A DNA stretch of 64,000 nucleotides. It comes from Thermoplasmatota archaeon. Its GTDB lineage: Archaea > Thermoplasmatota > E2 > DHVEG-1. Under the pieces are notes generated by a model. That model had not been told where the DNA came from, made no database searches, and saw only the letters and a program-made list of their open reading frames with translations. The DNA is taken from positions 5,717 through 69,716 of the forward strand of contig JAUXAU010000004.1 in the NCBI GenBank assembly GCA_030619765.1. Direction: 5' to 3'. A program made the translations under genes and the position numbers. This document shows positions 6,448-62,761 of this stretch, piece after piece (within the stretch, counting starts at the first letter, position 1; each line of letters opens with the position of its first letter).

Positions 6448-7030
6448 GATACTCTCTCTCCACCAGCATTTGTGCTGCTTCTATTGCTACTCCTTCTTCT
6501 CTTAACAAATCTAATATCAGTTGTGGTATGGATACTATTCTTAATCCCTCTTTTTTAATATTTGAGTAGAACACATGTTCGTCGTCTAGTAGAAGCCTCA
6601 TATTACCTTTTCCAACAAGTCCTTGTTTAGTGAGAAGTTTATGCCATGATTGAAAATCTTGTTCTTTTATGTAAATATCTACTCGTGAGGGGAATAAATA
6701 GTGTTGTGTCAGTGATTCAGCATGATAGGTTGTGAGGGCGTATTTTAGGTTTGTTTTTTTTAAGAGATCTATGGGATCTTGAATATTGTATTCTCTATAA
6801 AGTGGGTATTTGCTGATTTCTAGCCAGTATGAAAATATGCCTTGTGTATCTTTAACTTTTGTTTTTTCAACAAGGTTTTTTTGTTCTAATGTTCTAAGAA
6901 ATTTGATTACCCAGACATGAGAACAATCTGCTTCTTTTGCAATACGATATATCGATAATGATCCATCGGGATGTTTGAGTAATATTCTGAGTATTCTCTC
7001 ACGTTTTTTGCCTTTCATAATATGTAACAA
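6434..7030 (-). CDS. AbiEi-like antitoxin / wHTH transcriptional regulator
   Basis: N-terminal winged HTH 'ILRILLKHPDGSLSIYRIAKEADCSHVWVIKFLRTLEQKNLVEK'; operonic with the AbiEii-like gene. Confidence 0.5.
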   Translation of the reverse strand: MLHIMKGKKRERILRILLKHPDGSLSIYRIAKEADCSHVWVIKFLRTLEQKNLVEKTKVKDTQGIFSYWLEISKYPLYREYNIQDPIDLLKKTNLKYALTTYHAESLTQHYLFPSRVDIYIKEQDFQSWHKLLTKQGLVGKGNMRLLLDDEHVFYSNIKKEGLRIVSIPQLILDLLREEGVAIEAAQMLVEREYHGII

Positions 7031-25577: not shown

Positions 25578-27548
25578 TTAACTTCTCTTGTTAGTCTCTC
25601 TTGTTTTAACTGCAATACCATAGTTAAAGGAAAGCATCTCGCTTTTGTTTAACAGGCATCTTCCAACTGCAAGTAAATTATCTTTTTCATCAACAATTAA
25701 ACATTCATCAAGTGGTATTAATGCTGAATCACAATCTTCTACAAACTTAGCAAAGACACTTTTCCCTTCTTTAATAAAAGGAACAGCATCCTCTCTTACA
25801 ACAACTCTCAACTTTAGATATTTGAAAAAATCATGTAAAAGACTTGCACCGCCGATTTTTAAAGTAAACATGCCATCTGATGCTCGCATAGACAAAATGT
25901 GATTTCCATCACAATATATATTACGTATTTTACCAGTCTTTTTTGATTTGACAATCTTCATCTTTCCATTAAATAATGCCTTGGAGGCGTCTTTTCCGAA
26001 CTGCATGTCTGAAACAGCAGAAATTCTTCTAAAATCCATATCTATTTTCCTTTCTTCAGATACATCTGTTTCCAGGCTAGTTTTACCATCTTTCCAAAGT
26101 ATTACCTTTCTTCCCATCAAAAATTCATCAAATATCTTTCTTGATTCTTCATCAGTCTCTTTATCTATATTTTTAGGAAACACAGACTGTGCAAACGGAT
26201 ACATTTCATCAAGTTCAATAGGTACTGGACCCAAATGAGAATGTACTACTAGGTTTACATTTTTCTTTTTAAGAATTTCTTTTATGTATGGAGAATAGTA
26301 AGTTGAATATGGTTTATTTCCCTCTGGAAATACAATGGCAGTATCAAACAATTGTTCATATCTATTTAACAAACGTTTATGGATCCTATAAATAATAGGT
26401 CTATGAATAGTATGATCTCCAGTGTAAAATAAAGCTTTATTTTTGCTAATCGGCTCAAATTTTTCTAACCAAATCTTATTTTCTGTTTTTCTCAATTCTT
26501 TTAATGCATCTAGTAAATAGGGATTTGAACTGGCACGTCTTTCTACCAATTCCCAGAGATTTCCTTCAGAAATAGCAGATCTAATTTTTTTAATCTCGGC
26601 AAAACTAATGTAGAGATTATGCCTTGCTAATTGTAAAATAAGATCTGATTTCTCTAACTTTTTAAGCTCAGATGCAGTAAATTTTGTACATACGGGGCAA
26701 CAGCACGGTAGCTCATTTAAATCATCTAGCCTCTCTGTTCCCCATGGAAAAATCATTCTTCCATCATTTGCATATTTTGCATATGCAGAAGAATCAAAGA
26801 AGTCACAACCGAGTGCGACAGCCAAAGGAAATATCAATGGATGGCCTGCACCAAATAAGTGAACTGGCTTTGAAGGGTCTAGTCCTCTTTTGGATGAAAT
26901 GATGCACCGTACAAGGTCTACATATCTTTGATTTTCCATTAGAGGTACTACTCCACCTATTGGATAAAAATCAGCATCAATTTTACTAAGTTCTTTTGCA
27001 CATTTCACTCTAAGATCAGGATAAATAGAGCCCTGGACAGTACAGGCAAGCAACATATCGTCTTTCTCAGATGCGCTCTTTTTAGAGCGTTTAATCGTTT
27101 CTTTAATCCCCTGCTCTGCTTCTTTTTTGGTTTGATCAGGCCTTCCAAAAACATCTAAGACGGTCCCTACATCACTTCCAATATCTCTCTGAAATTTTAC
27201 AATCTCGATTGGGTCTATATCAATATCACCATATACATAAGACTGAAACGTTCCAGAGTCCGTCATAATGGGACCATCAAAATCTATGAGACTGTGAACT
27301 CCATTTTCTAAAACTTTCTCTTTATGTTCTTTGTGTTTGTTTATTATGTAAGAGTTAGTAATAACCATCTCGGTGCCAAAGAGTTTTTTCATTTCTCTTG
27401 GAGAGATAAGCATCTTGTTTGGATTTATGACAGGCATTAGATTAGGGGTAGTAACTGTTCCGTGTTTTGTGGTAAATTTACAAACCCTTCCTGCTGCGTC
27501 TCTGCCCTTAATTTCGAATTTCATTTCAAAGAGGATATCGAAATACAA
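25578..27548 (-). CDS. tgtA: archaeosine tRNA-guanine transglycosylase with a PUA domain
   Basis: Catalytic 'MTDSGTFQ', Zn site 'CCCPVC', 656 aa with C-terminal extension. Confidence 0.8.
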   Translation of the reverse strand: MYFDILFEMKFEIKGRDAAGRVCKFTTKHGTVTTPNLMPVINPNKMLISPREMKKLFGTEMVITNSYIINKHKEHKEKVLENGVHSLIDFDGPIMTDSGTFQSYVYGDIDIDPIEIVKFQRDIGSDVGTVLDVFGRPDQTKKEAEQGIKETIKRSKKSASEKDDMLLACTVQGSIYPDLRVKCAKELSKIDADFYPIGGVVPLMENQRYVDLVRCIISSKRGLDPSKPVHLFGAGHPLIFPLAVALGCDFFDSSAYAKYANDGRMIFPWGTERLDDLNELPCCCPVCTKFTASELKKLEKSDLILQLARHNLYISFAEIKKIRSAISEGNLWELVERRASSNPYLLDALKELRKTENKIWLEKFEPISKNKALFYTGDHTIHRPIIYRIHKRLLNRYEQLFDTAIVFPEGNKPYSTYYSPYIKEILKKKNVNLVVHSHLGPVPIELDEMYPFAQSVFPKNIDKETDEESRKIFDEFLMGRKVILWKDGKTSLETDVSEERKIDMDFRRISAVSDMQFGKDASKALFNGKMKIVKSKKTGKIRNIYCDGNHILSMRASDGMFTLKIGGASLLHDFFKYLKLRVVVREDAVPFIKEGKSVFAKFVEDCDSALIPLDECLIVDEKDNLLAVGRCLLNKSEMLSFNYGIAVKTRETNKRS

Positions 27549-41565: not shown

Positions 41566-42681
41566 ATGACAGAAGGAAACGAAAAGAAAATACAAGATTA
41601 TTGTGAATATAGGCTTGATGAGGAGAGAGTGGAAGAGACCACAGTTAAACTCAACCGCCATATTTTAACTAAATTTGCAGAGACATTGGATAAACCCTTC
41701 AAAAAAGCTACTCACAAGGACATAAGGAAATTCTTAAATTCCTATGCAGATAGAACAAAAGATTTGTACATTATAGTTCTGCGGAGGTTTTATCGTTGGC
41801 TATTTAAAAGCGATGAGCTACCAGAATGCATCAAAGGCTTTAAATTGCAGAGTAAGAGGTCAAGGGCACAACAGGATAATGACATAACACGAAAGGAACG
41901 CATAGTTACTCCAGAAGAGTATGAAAAACTGCAATCTGTTACAAAAAATCCACAGTTTAAGGCAATTTTTGAAACATTATATCTATTCGGTTGTAGAATC
42001 TCCGAGCTTACGAGTATGAAAGCTACAGGTGTTGATGACGATGGAGAAATTGTAACGATAGACCTTAGAGACTCCAAGACAAAGCCCAGAGTGACAGGAA
42101 TTAATGTGCGTCCTAAGTATCTGCTTGACTGGTACAACACATATCAACCATACAAAGGTCAGAAAGACAAGCCGTTGTGGGTATCTAAGAAAGGCACACT
42201 TATAAATAAGGGAGTTGTCAACAGCGAATTAATGAGATTTAGCGATAAAGCAGAGATCGGCAGGAATATCTCCCCACACGACTTCCGACATACAGCAATC
42301 ACTAGAGCATTAGACAAGGGAATGCCGACAACGCATGTGGAAGAACTATATGGTTTTGAAACAGGCTCTGCTGTAATTTCTGTTTATGATCATAATGACC
42401 AAAAAAGTGCAATGCAGTATCTTAGAAGAGCACAGGTTAAGCAAAGACCTCCGAGCTACAAGGAATTAAAAAAGAAAGCAGACTTAATCGAAATACTGGA
42501 ACAAAAAGTAGCAACATTGACAGAGCAAGTGGATAAAATGACGAAGCATGAGACAGATGTCCAAAGTAAAACACTGATTCTCAAACCAGAAGATCATCAG
42601 GAGCTGCGGCTTTACCTCGACACTAAATCTTGGTTTAAAGAGGCAATCAAAGAAGCCGATAAAGCCGATCAAAAAAAGTGA
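41566..42681 (+). CDS. tyrosine-type site-specific recombinase/integrase
   Basis: 'RISELTSM', 'HDFRHTAITRAL', 'HVEELYGF' (R..H..R..Y catalytic tetrad order). Confidence 0.75.
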   Translation: MTEGNEKKIQDYCEYRLDEERVEETTVKLNRHILTKFAETLDKPFKKATHKDIRKFLNSYADRTKDLYIIVLRRFYRWLFKSDELPECIKGFKLQSKRSRAQQDNDITRKERIVTPEEYEKLQSVTKNPQFKAIFETLYLFGCRISELTSMKATGVDDDGEIVTIDLRDSKTKPRVTGINVRPKYLLDWYNTYQPYKGQKDKPLWVSKKGTLINKGVVNSELMRFSDKAEIGRNISPHDFRHTAITRALDKGMPTTHVEELYGFETGSAVISVYDHNDQKSAMQYLRRAQVKQRPPSYKELKKKADLIEILEQKVATLTEQVDKMTKHETDVQSKTLILKPEDHQELRLYLDTKSWFKEAIKEADKADQKK

Positions 42682-46387: not shown

Positions 46388-48868
46388 TTGGAGGATATAG
46401 GTTCATCAAAGAAATTAGGAGATTTTATCAATAATATTGAAAAATATAGGAGATTAAAACTTATTGGATTTGTTCTAACTCCCATAGTTATTGGCTTTTT
46501 TATTTTAAGATATTGCAATATTAAATTAAATGAACTAGAAAAAGAAATAAGAGTTGAAATACAACAAGAAATGGAAGAGATAAGAATCACACATAGAAAT
46601 GTTATAATAGATGATACTTACCTTATATATTCAAAAAGAACCGACCTTCTAAATTATTATGATGCTCGTATAAGATGGATAACCCAATTATCATCTTATA
46701 AAAATTGTTTTAGCTCCGGATTAATCGGGTTAATAGAGGAATCAGAGAAGGAAATAAGTTGTATTAGACTCAAAATAGATAATTTCAACAAAGAATTTGT
46801 CAAACGTAGAAAAAATGAATATCAATATTTGTTTGATAAAGTACCTTTTCCATTAGATGAAAATCAGAAAAATGCAATTATAATAGACGACAAACATAAT
46901 CTTGTTGTTGCAGGTGCAGGATCTGGTAAAACAGAAGTTCTCATCAACAGAATAGCTTATCTCATTGAAAGAAAACCTGATACAGTTAATCGTAAGAAAA
47001 TACTTGCTTTAGCCTTCCAGAGAGATGCAGCAAGACAAATGAAGAATAGATTGAAAGAAAGATATAATCTTGATGTTGAAATTCGAACTTTTCACTCTCT
47101 TGGACTTAATATTTTAAAAGAAATTGATGAGAGATATAAATTATATGGTGGGGATAATCATGAACAAAAATCTATTCAGCTTATATCAAAGTTAGTTAAC
47201 GATGCTAAAAAAGAAAGAGAGTTTCAGAACCATCTTATTAATTATATGAAATGGGTAGGAACATCAGAAAAGACAAAAGATGAAGCTGACTTTAAAGAAA
47301 AAGAAGAATTCTATGAATATATGAGAAATTTAGAACTGACTGCTTTAGATGAAACTAAAGTTAAAAGCCATGGAGAACTTGAAATTATTAATTTTTTCTT
47401 AACCAACAAAATAAACAATAAGAATATCAAGGTTTTATATGAAGACTATGCTGAATGGATGGAATATGAAGATCCGGATAAGTTAAAACATACTCCTCGT
47501 CCTGATTTTTATTTGCCTGATTACGATGTATATATTGAGCATTGGGCAATTGACGATGATGGAAGTACATGGGAAAATGATTATCTTCGTACAATGAAGA
47601 TTAAAAAGAAGAAGTTTGCAGAGCATAATAAAACATTGATTGAAACAACATATGGGGAATTCAAGAACAATAAAAACTTCATTGAATTATTAAAGGAACG
47701 ATTACTAAAAATATTACATGAGAAATATCCAGATAAAGATTTTACAATTACACCAATTGAATATGAAGAACTTGTTAAGAAGGTATGGGATGAGTGTAAA
47801 GTATACATTGATAATCTGCCAAAACACATAGCTAACTATATTAAAAATGCAAAAACCTATTATCTAACTCCAGAAAAAATAAGTGAGCGATTATCCAAAG
47901 AGAAGTGGAATAGAGAACAAATAACCTTCTCGCAAGTAGCTTTAAAAATCTACGAAGATTATCAGAATGAGCTCAAATCTTCAGGATATATTGATTTTGA
48001 AGATATGATAAATATTGCTATTGAAAGCTTAAAAAATAGCCCTGAATTATTAAAAGATAATTATGACCATATCCTTGTGGATGAATATCAGGACATTAGT
48101 CAGCAAAGATATGAATTAATAAAAACCATCGTGGAGAAGAATCAAAATTGTAAGTTGTTTTGCGTTGGTGATGATTGGCAGAGTATCATGAGTTTTGCAG
48201 GTTCAAATCCTGAATTTTTCATTAATTTTGATAAATATTTTGACCATCCTGCAAGAACTGATTTAACATTTAATTATCGAAGTATAAAATCAATCGTTGA
48301 AACTGGAAATGAAATAATCAAGTATAACGGTGACCAACAAATATCAAAAAAGGTCTATGCGAATAATGAGCAGATAGTACCTATTGATGTTTTTTATCTA
48401 ATGCATAAGGAAAATTATAAATGGAAATATTATAAACAGATGGTAGAGGACTGTATTGACCGTATTAAATACCATTTAGATAACGGATATGAATCCGAGG
48501 ACATTATGGTCTTAACTCGAATTACTAAAAATCCTATATATAAGGAATTTTTTTATGAGTATGTAAACAATAATAATATTTCATTTTCCTCGATACATAA
48601 GAGCAAGGGTTTACAATCAAAGATTGTCTTTTTACTTGATATGAAAGAAGGTGTGTATGGGTTCCCATGTCAACTTCATAATCCAGTAATATTTGAACCA
48701 GCTCGTATGGAGGTAATATCAGATAAGGTCGTTGAAGAAAGACGATTATTTTATGTTGCTGTTACACGAGCTAAAGAAAAACTATATGTTTACTCACAAA
48801 AATCTAATCCCAGCAGATTTTTATCTGAAATGGGAGAATATGTTAATCACCAGAATATTGGTTATTGA
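46388..48868 (+). CDS. UvrD/PcrA-like SF1 helicase with an N-terminal TM/coiled-coil region and a ~370-aa insertion carrying a nuclease-like motif
   Basis: Walker A 'VVAGAGSGKTEV', motif II 'ILVDEYQDIS', motif VI 'VAVTRAKEKLYVY'; insertion has 'PRPDFYLPDYDVYIEHW'. Confidence 0.75.
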   Translation: MEDIGSSKKLGDFINNIEKYRRLKLIGFVLTPIVIGFFILRYCNIKLNELEKEIRVEIQQEMEEIRITHRNVIIDDTYLIYSKRTDLLNYYDARIRWITQLSSYKNCFSSGLIGLIEESEKEISCIRLKIDNFNKEFVKRRKNEYQYLFDKVPFPLDENQKNAIIIDDKHNLVVAGAGSGKTEVLINRIAYLIERKPDTVNRKKILALAFQRDAARQMKNRLKERYNLDVEIRTFHSLGLNILKEIDERYKLYGGDNHEQKSIQLISKLVNDAKKEREFQNHLINYMKWVGTSEKTKDEADFKEKEEFYEYMRNLELTALDETKVKSHGELEIINFFLTNKINNKNIKVLYEDYAEWMEYEDPDKLKHTPRPDFYLPDYDVYIEHWAIDDDGSTWENDYLRTMKIKKKKFAEHNKTLIETTYGEFKNNKNFIELLKERLLKILHEKYPDKDFTITPIEYEELVKKVWDECKVYIDNLPKHIANYIKNAKTYYLTPEKISERLSKEKWNREQITFSQVALKIYEDYQNELKSSGYIDFEDMINIAIESLKNSPELLKDNYDHILVDEYQDISQQRYELIKTIVEKNQNCKLFCVGDDWQSIMSFAGSNPEFFINFDKYFDHPARTDLTFNYRSIKSIVETGNEIIKYNGDQQISKKVYANNEQIVPIDVFYLMHKENYKWKYYKQMVEDCIDRIKYHLDNGYESEDIMVLTRITKNPIYKEFFYEYVNNNNISFSSIHKSKGLQSKIVFLLDMKEGVYGFPCQLHNPVIFEPARMEVISDKVVEERRLFYVAVTRAKEKLYVYSQKSNPSRFLSEMGEYVNHQNIGY

Positions 48869-48943
48869 TATGAAGTTGAAGATTTGGAGGAGGAAAAGGA
48901 AATGAATAACAATAGGGGATTTCTCGCAACAGGTATAATACTA

Positions 48944-50380
48944 TTAATTCTCGGAATATTTTTCGATTTTCTTTAAATCTTTGATTTCAATGTATTTATT
49001 TTTATCAGAACTTGCATCATTGTATTTCATGCCAGTAGCAAATCCAAAATTAAATAGTAAATCTTCTATCTTGCCGTGATAATGGCTATAAGCATTTAAA
49101 CTTCTATGTGTTTTTAGTTCTTGTTTTAGTTTATTATCAAGTTTTTCTATCAATTTATCCTTTTCTTTGGTTGGTATTGCTCTAAACATTAAAATCAATT
49201 TCTTGATTGATTCGATTTGTTCCGCATGATAGGAGTGAATAGCAATTAAACCTAATTCGTGATAATAAATTCGGTTGTCCGGTAAATCAGACATTAAATA
49301 AACTAAGAATTTGAAGAATTTAAGATTACCCCATACCCAAGTGATATTTACTAATCCAGTTGTATAAATTGAACGTAGTCTAGATACATCTGTAGTTGAG
49401 GTTTTAACCAACTCATATCCAAGAGCTGTTATTTTATATTCACTTCTGTTATATTTTTGTATTAGTCCTAATCGTTCTAAATAATTCTTATGTTGACGAA
49501 TAAACCAATCTCTTTTTTGTTCTTCTGTATATCTATGTTTATATGTTATACCTGCCTGTTTTATTATAGAATTGACGTATCTAATGTCTTTTCGACTCGT
49601 TGAGAATGATGCATATCCGTCACTTTTGTATTCTTTACTTTTGATAATTAATTCTATAATTTTTCGTAGTTCCTTTAATTTATCTGTATTAATTATTCCA
49701 TGTCCTGGTAATAAATACCAACCACGCCATTTTTCCAAATTTACAATTTTTTTATTACTTTTAATATATTTTATCCAATCATCTACAAATGTGAGGATTG
49801 TTTTACTATTCTCACCGAAATTATAGGTTCCATCCTCCTTATATTTGATTTTAATATGTTTGGTTTTCTCAACATCTTTGTAATTGTCAATATATTCATC
49901 ATCAATCAATAAAGATTTTTCACTTTCCCATAATTTCCTAAAATATTTTATTTGCTGTTTAATGATCGTGGTTTTTCCCTTAATTATAATGTTTGCTTCA
50001 ATGTTTTTTTCTAATGCACCTTTACTTATATTTGATGATCCAGTAATGGTAATTATATTTGGTTTGGAATGAAATATCCATAATTTTGGATGATATGTTT
50101 TTTGTGGATCTCGATATACTTTGAGTATCACGCCCATCTTCAATAATTCTCTAAGAGCAGTACTCTCAGAGATATTCATATCTTCTCCAAATAATAATTC
50201 AATTTTTCCTCCATCCTGAATAAACTTTTGAAATGTAGGCTTTAAATAATCAACACCAGACCTCCTGACAAATGAAATTCCCATTTGAACCTTTTTCAGA
50301 TTTTCTATTTCAAAGCAATCTATGATTGCTTTTAATGTTGTTTGCCCATTGTCGTTAAAAACAAATACTAAATCCTTCAC
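48944..50380 (-). CDS. PLD-family (Nuc/BfiI-like) nuclease-domain protein
   Basis: 'YHPKLWIFHSKPNIITITGSSNISKGAL' is a degenerate HxK..D..GSxN motif; convergent with the helicase. Confidence 0.45.
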   Translation of the reverse strand: MKDLVFVFNDNGQTTLKAIIDCFEIENLKKVQMGISFVRRSGVDYLKPTFQKFIQDGGKIELLFGEDMNISESTALRELLKMGVILKVYRDPQKTYHPKLWIFHSKPNIITITGSSNISKGALEKNIEANIIIKGKTTIIKQQIKYFRKLWESEKSLLIDDEYIDNYKDVEKTKHIKIKYKEDGTYNFGENSKTILTFVDDWIKYIKSNKKIVNLEKWRGWYLLPGHGIINTDKLKELRKIIELIIKSKEYKSDGYASFSTSRKDIRYVNSIIKQAGITYKHRYTEEQKRDWFIRQHKNYLERLGLIQKYNRSEYKITALGYELVKTSTTDVSRLRSIYTTGLVNITWVWGNLKFFKFLVYLMSDLPDNRIYYHELGLIAIHSYHAEQIESIKKLILMFRAIPTKEKDKLIEKLDNKLKQELKTHRSLNAYSHYHGKIEDLLFNFGFATGMKYNDASSDKNKYIEIKDLKKIEKYSEN

Positions 50381-50578
50381 TCTATTGCTATCTTAATATT
50401 CTTTTATAAAGATTGTGAACATGAATTTTATGATATGCAACATTTTGATAATCCTTTTAACTTTTAACCATTGTTCTATGTTTATATTAAATTTTTTTTG
50501 GAACAACATCCGAATCTAAAAAGGATCACCTATAAAAACCAATTATCTAATCTAAAGTGTTGTATACCATTTATCCTA

Positions 50579-51007
50579 TTATGACCAAACTCCTTTTCTT
50601 TTTGATAAAGAAATCAGGATTTCAATATCTTTGTCATCAATTTCAAGGATATATCCATTCATATGTTTACTCGCTTTTAATAATTTGGAAGAAATGTTTG
50701 GATGTTGTTTTACTAATTTCAACGGAACTGGATTTTCTAATAGACATGTATTTGACAAATCAATTATATATTTTTTACCATTATCATATACTTCAGAAGT
50801 CACGATAGATTTGGCTACAAATGCAGATTTAAACATTTTTACTAGAGTGTTTTCTTTTTTAAGATAATGGAAAATAATGTCACCTTTTTCCACTCGGCTC
50901 ATTATATAAAAAATCTTTTTATTTCGAAATGATATTAAATCTTCCTTACCTTCTAGCTTTTTCTCCAGAGAATCTGTGCCACATTTAACTTCAATCCAAG
51001 TTGTCAT
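50579..51007 (-). CDS. EVE/PUA-like domain protein
   Basis: About 140 aa; 'W...VKCG...GDIIFHY...VAKSIVTSEVYD' pattern resembles an EVE domain. Confidence 0.3.
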   Translation of the reverse strand: MTTWIEVKCGTDSLEKKLEGKEDLISFRNKKIFYIMSRVEKGDIIFHYLKKENTLVKMFKSAFVAKSIVTSEVYDNGKKYIIDLSNTCLLENPVPLKLVKQHPNISSKLLKASKHMNGYILEIDDKDIEILISLSKRKGVWS

Positions 51008-51390
51008 GTTTTTACCTTTTTTTATAATTATATGACATATTGAAGATGAATAGTTGGTATATAGGAGAATGGATAAACATATTGGTATAATTTCTTATTT
51101 TCTAGTATTTATATACTCATTCTCTTTAGCTCCTGTTAAAAATTAGGTTTAGTAGTGCGAATATATTAAATATCTCCTTTTAGATTTGTGAATTGGAGAT
51201 TTCATTTTTTCGGTTCCGAAAGTGCATCGAAATTTCCTGTCTAGGGAGATCTCAACCAACATTCCCTACGGCCCTTATTAACTTATGTTTCTACTTATCT
51301 TATTATCTCATAAAATATGGTGTACTAAAAATTTTCCGGAATGAGAGTTTCCACATGGCAAAAAATTAAAAAGAAAAAATAACGATGAAT

Positions 51391-52110
51391 TTATATCTTT
51401 GACAATTTACTTAATTTCTCTTCTGCTTTTTCAACTTTAGCTTTTAATTCATCTTCATTCAAATCTGGATGGAGTTTCATCATAAAATCGCAAAAATCGA
51501 TAAATGATCGTTGATCGATGTTTGCAATTCGAGTATAACTACCATCTATTGCAGCTCTACCGATTTTACCTGGAGTATAATAACTTACAATATCAAGATT
51601 CTTGTTATAATTTGCCATCAAACCTCGTTCTAAAAATGTGGCATATCCCACAACAACAGTGTCAATAAATTTTTCATATTCAACATATATTTCATGGGCA
51701 GTTAATTCAACGTTAAAAATATCTTCTTTAGTCATACCCTTTTTCTTTGGATATGGATGAGGAACATCGTCAGGCATTTCAGGTCTATGAGTGATCAAAG
51801 TTTGAAAAAAGCTATCTTTCATAATACCAGTATCTGCCACTTTAAATTCCATAAAATATGTGTTTTCTGGATTTTTAGAATCAATGATAAGGACATCTGG
51901 CATATATCTGATGAACTGAACATTCTTAGTATGAGTATCCTCTAAAAGTTTATGAATCTCCTTAGTTAGTATTTCTATCCCATATCGAAAAGCACAAAGG
52001 GGTTTAATAGTAAGAACTCCATCCAACATAATTTGCATCATTTCTTCTGATAATTTCGTTCTTTTATCAAACCCATCTGAAATCATTATACATTCATCTA
52101 ATATTTTCAA
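51391..52110 (-). CDS. candidate restriction endonuclease (PD-(D/E)xK)
   Basis: 'YMPDVLIIDSKNPENTYFMEFKVAD'; divergent from the MTase. Confidence 0.35.
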   Translation of the reverse strand: MKILDECIMISDGFDKRTKLSEEMMQIMLDGVLTIKPLCAFRYGIEILTKEIHKLLEDTHTKNVQFIRYMPDVLIIDSKNPENTYFMEFKVADTGIMKDSFFQTLITHRPEMPDDVPHPYPKKKGMTKEDIFNVELTAHEIYVEYEKFIDTVVVGYATFLERGLMANYNKNLDIVSYYTPGKIGRAAIDGSYTRIANIDQRSFIDFCDFMMKLHPDLNEDELKAKVEKAEEKLSKLSKI

Positions 52111-52203
52111 ATGATTTAAAACCTTTTAATATATACTTTTGACATTCTCATAAAAGAACTTATTAACATTCATTGGGATTATCTTTAGGGGAGCAACAAT
52201 AAA

Positions 52204-53148
52204 ATGGTCAATGAAACGATCATATCCGCAAACAATAATTATTCTGAAGAAAAAGAAATAGGCGAAAATAGAGTTGATCCAAGAAATAAACTAAATGAAT
52301 TAAACGGTAGAAACTGGATTAAAGCAACAAAAAGCATATGGTATAGCAGACCCCCTCGACGGGACGAACTAAAAGAACAACATCCTGCCACATACGCAGA
52401 AAGTGATATTGAGCAATTGATTAAATTTTTTACAAAAGAGGGACAAACTGTATTAGATCCTTTTCTTGGATCTGGTAGCACCTTAATTGCTTGTCACGAT
52501 ACTAAAAGATTTGGAACAGGAATTGAACTCATTGACAAATGGGTTGAAATTTCACAGGAAAGAGTTAAGCAAGTTGAAACTCAGAAGACATTAGATTCAT
52601 TTGCCATAGAGCAAGAAACAACTCAAAAAATCATTCATGGTGATGCTGAAGGGGAATTGAAAAAAATAGAATCAGAATATTTTCATTTCATTGTTACCAG
52701 TCCGCCATATTGGGGGATTTTAAATAAACCACTGGATCATAAGACAAAAAAAGAAAGAGTTGGGAAGGGTTTAGATGTTAGATATAGTGAAGATGAAAAA
52801 GATTTAGCTAATGTTGAGAAGTATTCAGATTTTTTAAAAGCATTACAAAAAACCTGGAAAGCATGCTATAGAGTTTTGAAGAAAAATAAGTACATGTGTA
52901 TAGTAGTTTCTGATTTCAGGCATAAAAATAGATTTATTCTTTATCATGCTGATATTACAAAATCTATGGAAGAAATTGGATTTATTCTAAAGGGAATGAT
53001 AATTTTAGTTCAGGACAGCAAAACACTCTATCCTTATGGGTATCCTTTTGAATATGTGCCAAACATCCATCACCAAAATATTTTAATCTTTAAAAAGGAT
53101 GAAAATAATGAAAAATTAAAGGATATTTCAAATGGTAAGAGAGGGTGA
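52204..53148 (+). CDS. DNA N4-cytosine/N6-adenine methyltransferase
   Basis: Motif I 'LDPFLGSGSTL', motif IV 'VTSPPYWG'. Confidence 0.75.
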   Translation: MVNETIISANNNYSEEKEIGENRVDPRNKLNELNGRNWIKATKSIWYSRPPRRDELKEQHPATYAESDIEQLIKFFTKEGQTVLDPFLGSGSTLIACHDTKRFGTGIELIDKWVEISQERVKQVETQKTLDSFAIEQETTQKIIHGDAEGELKKIESEYFHFIVTSPPYWGILNKPLDHKTKKERVGKGLDVRYSEDEKDLANVEKYSDFLKALQKTWKACYRVLKKNKYMCIVVSDFRHKNRFILYHADITKSMEEIGFILKGMIILVQDSKTLYPYGYPFEYVPNIHHQNILIFKKDENNEKLKDISNGKRG

Positions 53149-54694
53149 AGTTTGTTGCGGTGTTGTTAAATGGCTTGTTTCTAAGCAACAAGAACTAGAT
53201 CGAGAAACAGGTAATAAAAAACATCTAGCTTTTTGGGCAGATAAAAAAACCTTTGATGGAATAAAGAGGCATTTAGGGATTTCAAGTACTTCTAATTTAG
53301 ACCATACAAAAACTTCAATCTCTAACAATTTCAATGTCGATTCAGACCTACTGGAGAGGTGTTGGCTTGAAATTGAAGATATTAGGATCCCTTATTCTAC
53401 TTCAAGTGATGTTCTGCCAGATTTTGTGGCTCATATATTTGACACATCTTCAAATATTTCAGAGACATGGGCTATTGAGGCAAAACCTAATGATATAGCC
53501 TCCATTCAAAGAGGTTATTTCCAAGTAATTTCTCATGCATTAGGTGTTTCAAAATCATACATTGCCATTCCTAGTGATTTAGAGGAGGCTGTTAAAAATC
53601 TTTACTATTACAATTATGGTATATTATTATATGATCCCACAAATCATACAATTGAAGAAAAATCAAAGCAAATCATTACAAGAGCCAATCCAGAAATTAT
53701 GGGCTACCTAACTAATTATCTGAGAGATTATCATTTTAAGAATCCGTCACATTTTCAAAGTCCATATGGCATTCCTTTTAGAGTTTCAAGAATATCTATT
53801 AGTGCTCGGGACAGCCTTTTGGTGTTAGCATTAAAACTATATTTTGATCATAATACGGATAATATTACCAACAGGGAGCCAAAAATTTTTGATTTGAAAA
53901 GAATGAGTTTTATTGATAAAAATGAGAACATAACTGATGATGCAAAATTCTTTTTTGAGATACTAGAAAAATATATCGAAGAGAAAATTACTTATCGACC
54001 AAGGGGAAGAACAAGAGCAATAGTAAATTATTTTATTAATAGCATTCCTTCTGTACAAGGAATGAATTTATTATATGAGGGGAATCCTTTTGGAAATTTT
54101 GTTTCGAATATTTTACACATGTTCTTAATATCGAACAATAGCTTGAAAGAATTAATTGGATGGATTAAACAAGCGACAGAAGAATCTGGAGGGGAGCACC
54201 CTATTTTTTCACATGTATTTACTATAGGGCTTAAAAGAAACCCCCTTTTACTTAGAGATATGATGCTTTCTCCTCATTTAAACACTACCACTCCTACATT
54301 CCATAATCCTCTAACAAGAGGAGGGAATGTTTGTGTAAATTGTGATCATCAGGATAAGAAAGGATTTTGCTTTTGTACAAATATTAGTTTAGTAAATCAT
54401 GTTGATTTTCAGAAGAAATATGGTGATTTCATTGAGATCTGGAGAAAACATGTACCTTATGAGTTCTTTACTGATCCTGCCTTACACAAACGATTTATTA
54501 AAATTCATACTTATTCAAATGGAAGAGAAGTTGAAATATTAGCTCCAGGATTTGTCAAATGTCTGATTCATACTGATACAAATAAAACAACAGGTATACT
54601 AAGACATTCTAAAATCCTAGGTAAAGATGTTAGAAGCGGTATAAAAGCAGAGCTTTGCACTAGATTTGATCCTTATTATTTAGAAACCACATAG
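53132..54694 (+). CDS. large hypothetical protein, translationally coupled to the MTase; PD-ExK-like motif and a C-terminal Cys cluster
   Basis: 'LPDFVAHIF...ETWAIEAK'; 'CVNCDHQDKKGFCFC'; ATG overlaps the MTase stop. Confidence 0.3.
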   Translation: MVREGEVCCGVVKWLVSKQQELDRETGNKKHLAFWADKKTFDGIKRHLGISSTSNLDHTKTSISNNFNVDSDLLERCWLEIEDIRIPYSTSSDVLPDFVAHIFDTSSNISETWAIEAKPNDIASIQRGYFQVISHALGVSKSYIAIPSDLEEAVKNLYYYNYGILLYDPTNHTIEEKSKQIITRANPEIMGYLTNYLRDYHFKNPSHFQSPYGIPFRVSRISISARDSLLVLALKLYFDHNTDNITNREPKIFDLKRMSFIDKNENITDDAKFFFEILEKYIEEKITYRPRGRTRAIVNYFINSIPSVQGMNLLYEGNPFGNFVSNILHMFLISNNSLKELIGWIKQATEESGGEHPIFSHVFTIGLKRNPLLLRDMMLSPHLNTTTPTFHNPLTRGGNVCVNCDHQDKKGFCFCTNISLVNHVDFQKKYGDFIEIWRKHVPYEFFTDPALHKRFIKIHTYSNGREVEILAPGFVKCLIHTDTNKTTGILRHSKILGKDVRSGIKAELCTRFDPYYLETT

Positions 54695-54741: not shown

Positions 54742-55011
54742 ATGGCAATAGAGCATAAGTTATTTGGAACTCAGCAGAAATATGGTTATGTATGGTGGAA
54801 TGCAAAGGATAATGATAAATTCAAGAAAGTTCTACCAAAGGAAAAATTTGTGTTATATTTTCATGAAAAAAAAGTTGGTGAACGCATGGTTGATTGGAGT
54901 AGACGTCGATTTATTCTTGGAAAGAGGGTCATGCGAGAACATTTGAAAAAGAACGATACCATAAAAATTTCTAATCCAACTGGAAATAAAGTTGTCATAA
55001 GCAAAAGATAA
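54742..55011 (+). CDS. hypothetical protein
   Basis: ORF track; followed in another frame by a copy of the Zn-ribbon mini-ORF (55011..55115). Confidence 0.3.
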   Translation: MAIEHKLFGTQQKYGYVWWNAKDNDKFKKVLPKEKFVLYFHEKKVGERMVDWSRRRFILGKRVMREHLKKNDTIKISNPTGNKVVISKR

Positions 55012-55180
55012 TCCGTAAAATCTGCGATGTAAACGAAACAGATAATCCTGATGGGATTTGCGATGATTGTAAGTTTTCGATAATTAGTAATGATGATATA
55101 CCACCAGATATATAACCAAAAAATTCCGTGATTTTGCTATATCGATTTTATAAGGAATATTCCTAATTTTAATTATGAAA

Positions 55181-58158: not shown

Positions 58159-58413
58159 TAATTTTTAGACAACCATTTTAATTCTAATGAACAATGTCCA
58201 ATAAGTATCAAAATCACAATCAGTTTTCTCAGTATGTGCTTGTATAAAAGATCATTGAAATTACTCCTGTTGAATAGGAGGTAGAAAGCAGGTTTTTTAA
58301 AGAAAAAGATGGTTATTCAATATTAATCACATATTTTCCGGAATATCATCTGAACTTATAATAGATACTTTGCAATCATCGCATATCCCATTGGAATTAT
58401 TAAAGTCTATTAT

Positions 58414-59235: not shown

Positions 59236-59328
59236 TCTATATTTCCTCCTCCAAATCTACAATTTTGTAATAATTCCTACTTTAAAAACAATTACACCGT
59301 TATTTAATTACAACTATTTTGAAAACAG

Positions 59329-60108
59329 TTAAGGGAATTTATACTCCAATCTTCCTGTTTTGTTATACTGTTCAATGAGATATAAAGCAGATTTTGGATG
59401 AACTTGAATTGAGCCACAACCAAGAAATTCCTGCAATCGTCTTCCATTACTGTATGATTGAATAAAGGGTTCTAACTTCTTTGGTATACTTGGCTTATAT
59501 TTTCCATTCAGTCTCTGTATCCCTACAAATGCAAATTTAGGAGAATTTTCAGATACCACTATTTTGTTTAAATCATCGAATAATGCTTCATAATAATCTA
59601 AACCAGCGGCGATTAAGACAATATCTTCTGAATTTGAGATATTAACTAACTCATGAATTGATTTAGGGTGAGAGGTCTCAATTATACCAGTATTACTAAG
59701 AAAATTCCACCACTGTTTTTTTACTTCGCCTTTATCTGAGCCATAAAAATAGTCCTGGTTATTTACTGAGTCATCAACTCCCGATTTGAACGTAGCATGA
59801 TAACCAGATATTTTTTCTTTGGCATTAATAAGACCAAATCCACAAGATACTATCCATAATTGACTTGGTCCATTAATTCCTCTAAATGCCTCCATTGATG
59901 CATTCCACATAGAGCCTTTGTATATACTCGATGCTTCAGGTAAAAATGTTGATGAATTCATATGATTGGTGAGAGTATTTTTCCATTCTTTAAATAATTC
60001 TTCAGTATCATTTCTAATTTCCTTTTGAAGTAAATTATCAATGGCATTCTTAACCGAAGGTCCTTCATAATTTTTGCTACCAACACAGGTGACTATTAAA
60101 TGAAACAT
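59329..60108 (-). CDS. hypothetical protein (third gene of an uncharacterised operon)
   Basis: ORF track; no family recognised. Confidence 0.4.
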   Translation of the reverse strand: MFHLIVTCVGSKNYEGPSVKNAIDNLLQKEIRNDTEELFKEWKNTLTNHMNSSTFLPEASSIYKGSMWNASMEAFRGINGPSQLWIVSCGFGLINAKEKISGYHATFKSGVDDSVNNQDYFYGSDKGEVKKQWWNFLSNTGIIETSHPKSIHELVNISNSEDIVLIAAGLDYYEALFDDLNKIVVSENSPKFAFVGIQRLNGKYKPSIPKKLEPFIQSYSNGRRLQEFLGCGSIQVHPKSALYLIEQYNKTGRLEYKFP

Positions 60109-60122
60109 AGAATAATCCCCCC

Positions 60123-60530
60123 CTAATGCTCCAATTTGTCCAGGATTAAATAATACCTTAATCCTCTACCAACTTTTCTTGATTCGATATAAGGCTGCTT
60201 TGAAATGAGTGTGAATGAAACTGCGGTATGCCTATTTTGCCCACCATGTAAATCCTTCTGCAAGTATCCTGCTGAAATATATTTTGGATTTTGTAAATCT
60301 CTGAATATATCTACAAAATCTCCCGTTGGTATATCCTCAAAAGGAAGTTTGCTATCCTCTCTTTCAACACGAATATGGGAGCCTGTTACACCTTTTACCC
60401 AAAACCGTTTCCTTTGAGAGTTCGTATACATCTCGGTAGCATTTTCACGGATTTTCCGCTCAACAAAATCTTTAACATCGTTCCAAAGGCGTTCATTATC
60501 AATATTTCTTTCCATTTTATCTGCTCCCAA
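60123..60530 (-). CDS. hypothetical protein (middle gene)
   Basis: ORF track; overlaps the upstream gene by 14 nt. Confidence 0.4.
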   Translation of the reverse strand: MGADKMERNIDNERLWNDVKDFVERKIRENATEMYTNSQRKRFWVKGVTGSHIRVEREDSKLPFEDIPTGDFVDIFRDLQNPKYISAGYLQKDLHGGQNRHTAVSFTLISKQPYIESRKVGRGLRYYLILDKLEH

Positions 60531-61233
60531 CCCATTCTTTTGTTTTAGTTATAGCGTTTGAGATGGTTATTTTATCCTTTTCATTTATTTCATCATCCAT
60601 AAGATGCTGCACCAACCATAAGCCACTTTCCTTAATTTTCTGAATGGGCGAATAATTTCCCAACCAGTTATTCGATGGTCTGCAAAAAGCACAACTTGCT
60701 ACAGTCCCAATAAGTGAACTTTCTAACCCCGTGCCACCCATTCTTTTTATCTGACTATCCATCATGATGAATTTAAAGGAAAAATTCTCCCTTAATATCT
60801 GCGTGACCTCTGATTCAATTGTCTTCTCTTTCTGAATATCTCGAAGATGCCCATAACGCTCTCGATTCTCTCTCGGTGTAAAATCTATCTCCCAGATTTC
60901 CAAATAATCATCCTTCTCTTTATTTAACAATGACCGCCCTATATTTTTTCTAAAGATGCTTCTATCCTTTGGTGCCGCTTTCATCTGATTAAAACTCATT
61001 TTCCTATCGTTAAACAAAAAGTGGTCGTTTATCCTGCTTCTAAAATTGTTCCCTTTGTGCGTTCCAATTCTAACCATTCTTGGTAAATTGCCACCATGTC
61101 CCCAATTTTCTCCGTCCTCATAGAAAAAGTAGATGCCGTTTTGCGGTAAATCCTCTAAACAGAATGGATATTTAAAAATCGGCAATGCTTTTAATTGACG
61201 ATGTAGCCATTCACAACTATTCGTAATTACCAT
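60517..61233 (-). CDS. GIY-YIG-like nuclease-domain protein (first gene)
   Basis: 'NGIYFFYEDGENWGHGGNLPRMVRIGTHKG...R...H' resembles the GIY-(x10-17)-YIG core. Confidence 0.35.
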   Translation of the reverse strand: MVITNSCEWLHRQLKALPIFKYPFCLEDLPQNGIYFFYEDGENWGHGGNLPRMVRIGTHKGNNFRSRINDHFLFNDRKMSFNQMKAAPKDRSIFRKNIGRSLLNKEKDDYLEIWEIDFTPRENRERYGHLRDIQKEKTIESEVTQILRENFSFKFIMMDSQIKRMGGTGLESSLIGTVASCAFCRPSNNWLGNYSPIQKIKESGLWLVQHLMDDEINEKDKITISNAITKTKEWVGSR

Positions 61234-61627
61234 TCTCCATTTGATATTCTTTCATCGTGTAAGACAGCCCATAAATAAGATGGACCTCTCACTATCTGGG
61301 AAATCTGACCAGGTCCACTAATGGGCAACAGTTTAGAGGCTTTCTTAATATCAACCTTCGATATAGCGTATTCAGTTCTACTTGGAATAAACATGTTTCC
61401 TACTATCTTATATGTAAATGGTAATCCCCTTTTTGTGAAAAACTCTTCTCCAGCATGTTCTATAATTCGACCCCATACCTCTTCAAAAGATGTATTTGAT
61501 ATGCTAATACCTCCTTTTTATTCTCATTATCTAAATGTACATTTTTAAATAATTTTCGTTCGCATTACTGATATATAACAATATATATACAATCTAACCT
61601 ACAAATATATATAAAACTTGAAATCAA

Positions 61628-61735
61628 TCACATATTTGGTAGAATATCATCATCACTAATTATTGAAACCTTACAATCATCACAAATCCCGTCAGGGTTA
61701 TCTGTTTCGTTTGTGCCACATATTTTGCAGATCAT
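61628..61735 (-). CDS. 35-aa zinc-ribbon mini-protein MICKICGTNETDNPDGICDDCKVSIISDDDILPNM
   Basis: Found by hand; CxxC-x10-CxxC; degraded paralogous copies at 58327..58413 and 55011..55115. Confidence 0.35.
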   Translation of the reverse strand: MICKICGTNETDNPDGICDDCKVSIISDDDILPNM

Positions 61736-61748
61736 ATTTAACCAAAAA

Positions 61749-62720
61749 CTAGTCTAATTTTCCTATATACTTTTTAGTAGCCTTCTCTAAACTAATCATA
61801 GCATCTATCATTTTATCTTGTATATCGTCCCATCTGTCTTCATCTTTTAATCCTATTTCATCAAATGTATAAGAAATTCTTGATGCCTTCCTATCATCAA
61901 GCTTCTCCCACAGTAGTTTTTCACCAAATTCTTTTTCAATTTCTCCCTTATGTTTAAACAGTCGATCAAATCTTTTTTTATTAATTAAGACATCCTCGTC
62001 CTCTTTTCCTTTATCAAGATAGATCTCAACTCTCCCATTCTTATACGTTACTTCATAAATATATGCAATTCCTGATTTACCTGCTCCTGTTGCTATCCAA
62101 GAATATTTACTTGGGGAAACATTAGAAAACAAATTAGTTTTATCTTTAGATTTCGTTAATAATTTTGTCCAGAAATCTTTTCTAAGTTTATATCTTTGTG
62201 CAGATTCTATCCTCTCTTCACCAAGTTGTTTTGCTTCAATAGTTGGACCGGTTACAATAGTAAATAGAGGTGCAGCTATCGGTTGATCTCCGATTTTAAT
62301 TGCCTCAAGTTTAACCAAATAAAATAATACGTCTCCAGGAGTATATTTGTTTAACCATTCAATAACCTGAACATGTTCATCTCTTGGTTCTTTTGTAATC
62401 CATATTGCAGTGTTTGCTTCGAGATTTATCATGTATGTAAGTATCTTTCCTAAATGATCATGATCTGTTTTTTCTAACTGATTCTCGATTATTACTTTAT
62501 TGTCATTTTCATCCTCAGCAAAAAGGTCTAATTTAAAAGGACCAACCTTTTCCTCTCTTTTAACAACGTTAAAATTTTTGTCAAGGACATCGTTAAGATA
62601 ATCAATATTTTCTTCTAACCATTTTGTAAATTCCTTATCTTCCTTTTTCCAAATTTCTCTTAAAGGAACTTTCTTGATTTTTCCAATTGGATTTTCAAAT
62701 TCCATTTCTTCCTCCTCCAA
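61749..62720 (-). CDS. PD-(D/E)xK-family (DUF4268-like) nuclease-fold protein
   Basis: 'FKLDLFAEDENDNKVIIENQLEKTDHDHLGK' (D..E.Q...D..HLG signature). Confidence 0.45.
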   Translation of the reverse strand: MEEEEMEFENPIGKIKKVPLREIWKKEDKEFTKWLEENIDYLNDVLDKNFNVVKREEKVGPFKLDLFAEDENDNKVIIENQLEKTDHDHLGKILTYMINLEANTAIWITKEPRDEHVQVIEWLNKYTPGDVLFYLVKLEAIKIGDQPIAAPLFTIVTGPTIEAKQLGEERIESAQRYKLRKDFWTKLLTKSKDKTNLFSNVSPSKYSWIATGAGKSGIAYIYEVTYKNGRVEIYLDKGKEDEDVLINKKRFDRLFKHKGEIEKEFGEKLLWEKLDDRKASRISYTFDEIGLKDEDRWDDIQDKMIDAMISLEKATKKYIGKLD

Positions 62721-62761
62721 ATCTACAATTTCATTTTAACTATCAGGATGGTTATTCATGT

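Follow-up and report, generated by a model that had tools for sequence, protein, structure and literature searches.

The window analyzed here, a 64,000-nucleotide (nt) stretch of a Thermoplasmatota archaeon (contig JAUXAU010000004.1, positions 5,717 to 69,716), carries on its minus strand a compact cassette of four genes, designated Z, A, B and C, in which a GIY-YIG nuclease (A) is coupled to a relative of DpdC (C). Sequence comparisons lead us to class this cassette as a variant of PDC-M57, a predicted system, with a DpdC-like partner downstream. We consider a role of the cassette in conflict or defense likely, because of its patchy distribution, horizontal transfer and island context, the PADLOC origin of the matching models and the finding that integrases are the commonest neighbors of A homologs. 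As to mechanism, we tentatively favor modification-dependent (type IV-like) restriction, whereby C may read or process a modified base, possibly a 7-deazaguanine, and A would cut the DNA. The open reading frames (ORFs) and the leader of the operon are as follows:

61503 to 61627, minus strand: A/T-rich leader upstream of Z with several TATA-like runs, read from the sequence
61227 to 61502, minus strand: Z, first gene of the operon, 80% identical over 91 residues to positions 6611-6886 of locus L081
61227 to 61394, minus strand: ORF of 55 residues from an internal ATG within Z, the sole entry in the Z frame in the program ORF list
60517 to 61233, minus strand: A, 238 residues, program ORF list
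60123 to 60530, minus strand: B as called, 135 residues from a TTG start, program ORF list
60123 to 60515, minus strand: B as amended by homolog comparison, 130 residues from the ATG at 60515
59329 to 60108, minus strand: C, 259 residues, program ORF list

A preliminary description of this DNA had reported three minus-strand ORFs of 238, 135 and 259 residues, with a 14-nt overlap between A and B and a 14-nt gap between B and C; these coordinates and the spacing of the calls agree exactly with the ORF list, but two amendments are needed. One concerns the length of B: homologs of B are all called at about 128-131 residues, from the equivalent of the ATG at 60515, and because they all begin at that ATG, the start of B is most likely this codon and not the TTG, which gives a protein of 130 residues starting 1 nt past the stop of A. 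The other is that the operon comprises four genes instead of three, with Z at its head. Translational-coupling geometry is found at each junction, with Z overlapping the start of A by 7 nt in the window and in L081 alike, and with a G-rich ribosome-binding site in the 14-nt spacer between B and C. The start codon of Z in the window is ATA (61500-61502) where the L081 homolog has ATG, with GGAGG kept 7 nt upstream; by this comparison, Z would either initiate at a rare non-canonical ATA or bear a recent start-codon defect. The leader at 61503-61627 is the presumed archaeal promoter region of Z; a scan for sigma-70 promoters and terminators yielded no enrichment, the sigma-70 model being unsuited to an archaeon, and an Rfam scan of the window returned one tRNA and nothing else.

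Protein A matches the PADLOC model PDC-M57B over its full length (PDLC04713, E 5.8e-64, residues 4-227). Its assignment to the Pfam family GIY_YIG_3 (PF26468) rests on precomputed matches, available for a protein identical to A (P0001) and for all 120 listed homologs; the Pfam release scanned locally predates PF26468. Scanned against the local Pfam and NCBIfam models, the three proteins A, B and C had almost no matches, and sequence and profile searches of the PDB gave none that was meaningful. The predicted structure of A has the GIY-YIG alpha/beta core fold, with the incision domain of UvrC among the closest folds. The GIY-YIG-like nuclease core proposed earlier for A is borne out, with a first motif G33-I34-Y35 and a second motif R55-I56-G57 (RIG instead of YIG), and with Y35, R55, G57, R67, H71 and E171 invariant among 29 homologs; by these features, we presume that A is the DNA-cutting effector. 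Four further residues (C7, H11, C181 and C184), located in the N-terminal helix and just past the GIY-YIG core, are invariant or nearly so, and could form a structural zinc site joining both ends of the protein.

Homologs of A are present in 389 of about 185,600 species genomes, and are 60-76% identical across archaeal and bacterial phyla. This sporadic spread together with such high identity therefore speaks for recent horizontal transfer instead of vertical housekeeping inheritance; in keeping with the earlier expectation, none of A, B and C belongs to a housekeeping family. A virus-encoded origin of the cassette was rejected, as neither A nor C had a match in 50,697 phage records, and A was found in only 4 of 2.9 million viral contigs (IMG/VR), among which C had no match.

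For B and C, the preliminary description could name no family, which holds for B but not for C. By its profile matches, C is clearly a divergent DpdC-like relative in the DUF6884/YaaA superfamily, and not a Pfam-defined member of it, as evidenced by: 1) matches to six PADLOC DpdC models, the best being PDLC02818 (E 3.3e-36, C residues 2-250), with an alignment spanning positions 4-236 of the 319-position model; 2) lesser matches to PDC-M57A of PADLOC (E 4.7e-5), to DUF6884 of Pfam (PF21818; E 0.017, 15.7 bits, below the gathering cut-off of 30) and to YaaA of Pfam (E 0.09, 12.7 bits vs. a cut-off of 29.6); 3) a CxxxK motif (C8-V-G-S-K12) and an LSAxxG-like motif (I86-V-S88-C89-G90-F91-G92, ISCGFG), with K12, S88, G90 and G92 unvarying among 26 C homologs and C8 retained in at least 90% of them. 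CxxxK and LSAxxG are the signature motifs of DUF6884 (PMC11701544). DpdC itself needs neither DpdA nor DpdB to turn preQ0 that is already in DNA into the amide ADG (PMC10164549). We presume from these resemblances that C is a base-flipping reader or processor of a DNA base. The C family is small, comprising 29 word-indexed homologs and 17 metagenome loci.

We also noted a stand-alone DUF6884 protein on the E. coli plasmid NZ_CP031135.1 (L099, 159860-160525) that is 27% identical to C over its full length; proteins of this type are found on about 1,800 large, mostly conjugative enterobacterial plasmids, where the neighboring genes encode cytosine methyltransferase, DUF1173, DUF4942 and H-NS proteins and no GIY-YIG partner is present.

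The coupling of A to a DUF6884-type protein is not confined to the window. In a survey of 80 genome loci with an A homolog, searched with profiles of all DUF6884 partner classes, an ORF of the DUF6884 superfamily was adjacent to or fused with the A homolog in 64. In 45 of the 80, a homologous ORF of about 135 residues abuts A upstream, being either DUF6884/PDC-M57A or a divergent subclass of it (in L075, E 1e-45 to DUF6884 and 1e-59 to PDC-M57A), and the partner likewise lies directly upstream in each of the four A copies from viral contigs. Fusions number at least 8 and come in both orders (DUF6884-GIY_YIG_3 in L057 and GIY_YIG_3-DUF6884 in L027), and the CxxxK and LSAxxG-like motifs are kept in every partner class. 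The remaining 16 loci have no detectable partner. Because adjacency or fusion is seen in 64 of the 80 loci, with fusions in both orders, GIY_YIG_3 and the DUF6884-type protein form a functional pair, and we are rather confident that the nuclease works in partnership with such a protein. The pair had already been catalogued as PDC-M57 (M57A being DUF6884 and M57B being GIY_YIG_3), through a search for genes embedded in BREX, DISARM and type I restriction-modification (R-M) loci ('guilt by embedding'; bioRxiv 10.1101/2024.01.29.577857), so that the earlier suggestion of an undescribed system does not hold for the pair as such. A full-text literature search for 'PDC-M57' returned no paper. We looked for a decayed canonical DUF6884 partner upstream of A and rejected this idea, as no remnant of PDC-M57A was found in 61180-61800 or in the six frames of the window, where the best match was C itself (E 0.14). 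Evidently, C takes over the role of the missing canonical partner.

The preliminary description had proposed that the three genes be sought together in other genomes, and A, B and C do co-occur elsewhere (L081/L082, L085-87 and L109). This recurrence surfaced only from searches with C and B: tblastn of B and C against the 80 A loci found neither, and a survey based on A alone would wrongly suggest that the triad does not recur. The complete order Z-A-B-C is found in L081/L082 (73%, 95% and 98% protein identity for A, B and C, respectively), and A-B-C in L085-87 and L109 (62%, 62% and 54%); because these arrangements lie on independent contigs at 54-98% protein identity, they are not due to chance. 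B-C is also present on the cut contig L116. In L097/98, A is followed by an unrelated 123-residue ORF and then C, and in L093, L110 and L115 a second subtype of PDC-M57B has C directly behind it. The middle ORFs of 123 residues in L097 and of 115 residues in L095 were considered as divergent forms of B and rejected (hhalign probability about 1% or less). The middle gene may thus be B, a 123-residue ORF, a 115-residue ORF or none, and is therefore dispensable.

Members of the C family also occur behind enzymes other than A. In about six lineages (L088-91, L094, L104-108 and L112), C follows an HhH-GPD protein of ~400 residues (401 residues) that aligns to endonuclease III, with the catalytic Asp and the 4Fe-4S cysteines kept and the lyase lysine absent. 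In L095/96, C lies behind a REase_II-like protein and is followed by two methyltransferases, and in L092 a C relative is clustered with a DpdA-type TGT (E 2e-13) and QueT. The gene upstream of C, where visible and recognizable, thus encodes a DNA-breaking or base-removing enzyme. In the literature that could be searched, we found no description of such repeated pairing of a DpdC-like protein with interchangeable enzymes that break DNA. The genes of the HhH-GPD and C pair (L088 6830-8780; L090 6830-8810) often overlap and lie in islands with integrases and type I or IIG R-M genes; the pair may be a candidate two-gene base-excision defense system in its own right. The cluster in L092 (1288-7405) is made up of the DpdA-type TGT, a SWIM zinc-finger protein, two unknown proteins, the C relative, QueT and an N6/N4 methyltransferase, and may represent a minimal 7-deazaguanine DNA-modification locus without DpdB.

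The comparison with L081 also defines the limits of the unit:

59238 to 61493, minus strand: transferable Z-A-B-C cassette of 2.26 kb, aligned by blastn to L081 6620-8871

Homology between the cassette and L081 ends sharply at 61493 and 59238, with unrelated flanks on either side, from which the cassette appears to be a self-contained, horizontally mobile unit. When scored per 100 nt, DNA identity to L081 is 90-100% in the 3' half of Z, in B and in C, and 64-80% in the interior of A (60517-61233 vs. L081 6880-7596, 73% at the protein level). The cassette is thus a mosaic with a divergent A interior, and therefore either the nuclease allele has been exchanged by recombination or A has undergone strong diversification.

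B and Z are the only proteins of the cassette truly without a family assignment. B belongs to a very rare family, with no match in plasmid records, an invariant QNRHTAV motif and a C-terminal half that is probably winged-helix-like; it is presumed to be a DNA-binding accessory or regulator. An apparent B relative of 3,485 residues (P0167) was set aside as a likely repetitive artefact. Z has no Pfam family and no match in plasmid or phage records, its occurrence being limited to the window and the L081/L082 lineage.

In the modification-dependent reading that we favor, C would bind duplex DNA and flip out a non-canonical base so that it enters the Cys/Lys pocket, a movement also required of DpdC when it acts on preQ0. 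C may then sense or mark the flipped base or convert it, e.g. from nitrile to amide, in invading DNA, whereupon A, in putative physical contact with C, would cut the DNA; B may add DNA binding or regulation, and the target would possibly be 7-deazaguanine-modified viral genomes. We lean toward this mode because of four observations: 1) the DpdC-type reaction needs preQ0 in DNA, and no machinery for its insertion is found near the cassette (no DpdA, DpdB or preQ0-insertion genes among the island genes scanned at 40-64 kb); 2) the partnerless copies of A in 16 of the 80 loci are hard to square with a nuclease that needs a protective modifier; 3) C is the partner of a phosphodiesterase in some loci and of a glycosylase in others; 4) glycosylases of the HhH fold defend against 7-deazaguanine-modified phages, and such DNA is also known from an archaeal virus. 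For the last of these, experiments have demonstrated that the HhH-superfamily glycosylases termed Dag protect specifically against phages with 7-deazaguanine-modified DNA (bioRxiv 10.1101/2025.10.29.685425), and in one archaeal virus about 30% of G is replaced by dPreQ1 (PMC6884629).

A number of points weigh against this reading or its parts. The link to 7-deazaguanine is made up of HMM (hidden Markov model) similarity to DpdC, one association (L092) in about 15 lineages and the analogy to Dag; even in L092, the gene immediately upstream of C encodes an unknown 256-residue protein, with the TGT three genes away. No PDB entry is matched by a profile built from C-family sequences, and the YaaA/DpdC-like fold is a prediction from HMM matches. 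The conserved, putatively catalytic Cys and Lys suit a DNA-modifying enzyme at least as well as a passive reader, and in one C homolog (P0122) this Cys is replaced by Gly. Solo copies of A may have decayed, or their partners may be encoded at other genomic sites, and the neighborhoods of A homologs elsewhere are mixed, with plain housekeeping genes among them. Z, with its non-ATG start in the window, may be defective. Finally, PDC-M57 is one of 145 candidates that its authors called untested (bioRxiv 10.1101/2024.01.29.577857).

The cassette can be compared with several known systems. It shares with PDC-M57 a full-length M57B and the combination of a GIY_YIG_3 nuclease with a DUF6884-superfamily protein bearing CxxxK and LSAxxG; unlike PDC-M57, there is no canonical M57A, the upstream slot is filled by the unrelated small gene Z, and the partner is a 259-residue DpdC-like paralog that lies downstream, with B between A and C. 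Similarly, C resembles DpdC over almost all its length, and one C relative (L092) lies near a DpdA-type TGT and QueT, but no DpdA, DpdB or DpdD-K genes accompany C here, where it is coupled to a GIY-YIG nuclease; with DpdA and DpdB absent, we rejected C as part of a true Dpd system at this locus. Type IV enzymes offer precedents for a base-flipping reader joined to a nuclease, as exemplified by SRA-, EVE- or YTH-HNH fusions and by the 5-hydroxymethylcytosine-specific GIY-YIG enzyme PD-T4-3 (PDB 9u75). In contrast to these, the predicted reader here would have an enzyme-derived DUF6884/YaaA/DpdC fold with its putative catalytic residues kept instead of a PUA-like or SRA fold, the components are separate polypeptides, and their modification dependence is a prediction. 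As for Dag, the alternative partner of C is an EndoIII-like HhH-GPD protein and Dag is of the HhH fold, a likeness at the superfamily level that supports a common target class for C-linked effectors. However, Dag proteins were described and tested singly, and the effector in the window is a phosphodiesterase (GIY-YIG); the words 'operon' and 'DUF' were not found in the text of the Dag preprint (bioRxiv 10.1101/2025.10.29.685425).

Generalizing from the favored reading, the C family might consist not of modification enzymes of an R-M system but of enzymes that have become sensors, portable subunits for specificity or processing that serve interchangeable effectors (GIY-YIG nucleases, HNH/REase-like enzymes and monofunctional HhH-GPD glycosylases, in archaea and bacteria), and would thereby constitute a new two-component class of restriction against 7-deazaguanine-modified viral DNA, with the whole PDC-M57 family working by base-flipping recognition. 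We regard this extension as doubtful.

The foremost alternative to modification-dependent restriction is an R-M-like system, in which C would mark host DNA via its Cys/Lys site, A would cut unmarked DNA and B would be a controller-type winged-helix regulator. This arrangement would agree with the retention of the putative catalytic CxxxK and LSAxxG-like motifs in every partner class, with DpdC being the modification-side enzyme of the Dpd R-M system, and with the discovery of PDC-M57 embedded in R-M or BREX loci; in addition, the variable or absent middle gene behaves as a dispensable regulator, controller regulators occur in many R-M operons, and DUF6884 proteins are also found alone, like orphan methylases. 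However, a DpdC-type reaction would require preQ0 in DNA, and neither DpdA/DpdB nor other preQ0-insertion machinery accompanies the cassette; the partnerless copies of A in 16 of 80 loci would, if active, kill their hosts were A a classical restriction nuclease; no obvious target-recognition domain is seen in the short partners (about 135 residues); and C also pairs with a glycosylase, while known defense glycosylases attack modified foreign DNA. On balance we consider the R-M-like reading unlikely; should it be correct, C would represent a novel type of enzyme that modifies DNA without DpdA.

More improbable, in our estimation, is a DNA-lesion module, in which the DUF6884/YaaA-like protein would recognize an abasic site, a ribonucleotide or an oxidized base, and the GIY-YIG nuclease would incise alongside, in the manner of UvrC or EndoII; the HhH-GPD and C pairs would then combine a glycosylase with an abasic-site processing factor. 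Indeed, the DUF6884 member YfjM was found to interact with abasic and ribonucleotide lesions, and YaaA, an oxidative-stress protein, binds DNA (PMC11701544). The UvrC incision domain is among the closest folds of A, and the EndoIII-like HhH-GPD partner has no lyase lysine, a step that the conserved lysine of C could supply. On the other hand, the sporadic occurrence of A (389 of about 185,600 species genomes) at 60-76% identity across phyla points to recent transfer, the island that holds the cassette is bounded by an integrase and contains restriction-type genes, A has undergone an allele swap within a cassette that is otherwise nearly identical, and the neighborhoods of A homologs show no conserved linkage to other repair genes. 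The least credible of the alternatives is a selfish element, with A as a homing-type or addiction-type GIY-YIG endonuclease and the accessory genes spreading the cassette. The mobility of the unit notwithstanding, A is not associated with an intron or intein and lacks the DNA-binding modules customary in homing endonucleases; A and C are absent from the 50,697 phage records, with A in just 4 of the 2.9 million viral contigs; and the constant DUF6884-type partner is foreign to homing endonucleases. We hold this reading to be very improbable.

Phages and archaeal viruses swap guanine for 7-deazaguanine derivatives, thereby escaping restriction. Host enzymes that exploit these marks, namely the HhH Dag glycosylases, have been found only very recently. 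If the modification-dependent reading is true, the cassette would represent a new construction of modification-dependent restriction, with the fold of a base-modifying enzyme recruited as reader, and would provide a concrete, testable mechanism for the PADLOC candidate PDC-M57. It would also be a defense module native to archaea, a domain in which the repertoire of immune systems has been little explored, and such reader-nuclease pairs could serve as reagents to map 7-deazaguanines in DNA.

By gene content, the window is an archaeal chromosome (RtcB, an archaeosine TGT with C2 and PUA domains, HMG-CoA reductase, FtsZ and aIF-2B). The cassette lies in an island of low G+C content (29-34% vs. 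about 35%), which also encodes a transglutaminase-like protein. The other features of note are:

25578 to 27548: ArcTGT, a tRNA enzyme (TGT_C2 and PUA), the only TGT of the window, 32 kb off the cassette
41566 to 42681: tyrosine integrase, at the start of the island
46388 to 54694: island stretch with UvrD, PLD, EVE and methyltransferase genes
within 46388 to 54694: UvrD-type helicase, 826 residues
within 46388 to 54694, minus strand: PLD-family nuclease, 478 residues
within 46388 to 54694, minus strand: EVE-domain protein, 142 residues
within 46388 to 54694: N6/N4 DNA methyltransferase, its end overlapping an ORF of 520 residues
58414 to 59235, minus strand: HNH protein (Pfam HNH E 5e-11; PADLOC mREase_IV E 2e-20)
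61749 to 62720, minus strand: DUF4268 protein (PADLOC PDC-S11 E 2.5e-118; weak NucS_C-like N-terminus)

The 520-residue ORF that overlaps the methyltransferase has no family match and is probably its cognate restriction enzyme. The HNH protein had been described as an SRA-HNH enzyme; its HNH part is corroborated by the type IV model (E 2e-20), which matches residues 184-265 at the C-terminus alone, but no SRA or other domain was detected in the N-terminal 180 residues. By their model matches, the HNH and DUF4268 genes flanking the cassette are themselves candidates for defense. The defense-island context proposed in the preliminary description is thus upheld by a low-G+C, integrase-bounded region with a helicase, nucleases, an EVE protein, a methyltransferase, the HNH protein and PDC-S11.

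The genes on either side of the cassette share an exact direct repeat of 23 nt:

59243 to 59265: copy 1, TTCCTCCTCCAAATCTACAATTT on the plus strand, at the 3' junction of the cassette, in the leader and ribosome-binding site of the HNH gene
62709 to 62731: copy 2, in the leader of the DUF4268 gene

Read on the minus strand, the repeat is AAATTGTAGATTTGGAGGAGGAA, the leader and ribosome-binding site of both the HNH and the DUF4268 genes; the start of the latter is probably the ATG at 62705 and not the TTG at 62720. The same 23 nt are also found behind C in L081 (8844-8869), and homology between the window and L081 stops exactly at the ribosome-binding site. From this pattern, the repeat looks like a conserved junction for the exchange of island genes.

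A second small element recurs in the island, a zinc-ribbon mini-ORF of the CxxC...CxxC type:

61628 to 61735, minus strand: mini-ORF of 35 residues, MICKICGTNETDNPDGICDDCKVSIISDDDILPNM, directly 3' of the DUF4268 gene
58330 to 58401, minus strand: truncated copy, behind the HNH gene
55008 to 55112, plus strand: start-less copy with the first Cys replaced by Arg, behind a gene for an 89-residue protein (54742-55011)

One small zinc-ribbon element thus trails three island genes, with copies that are 73-75% identical.

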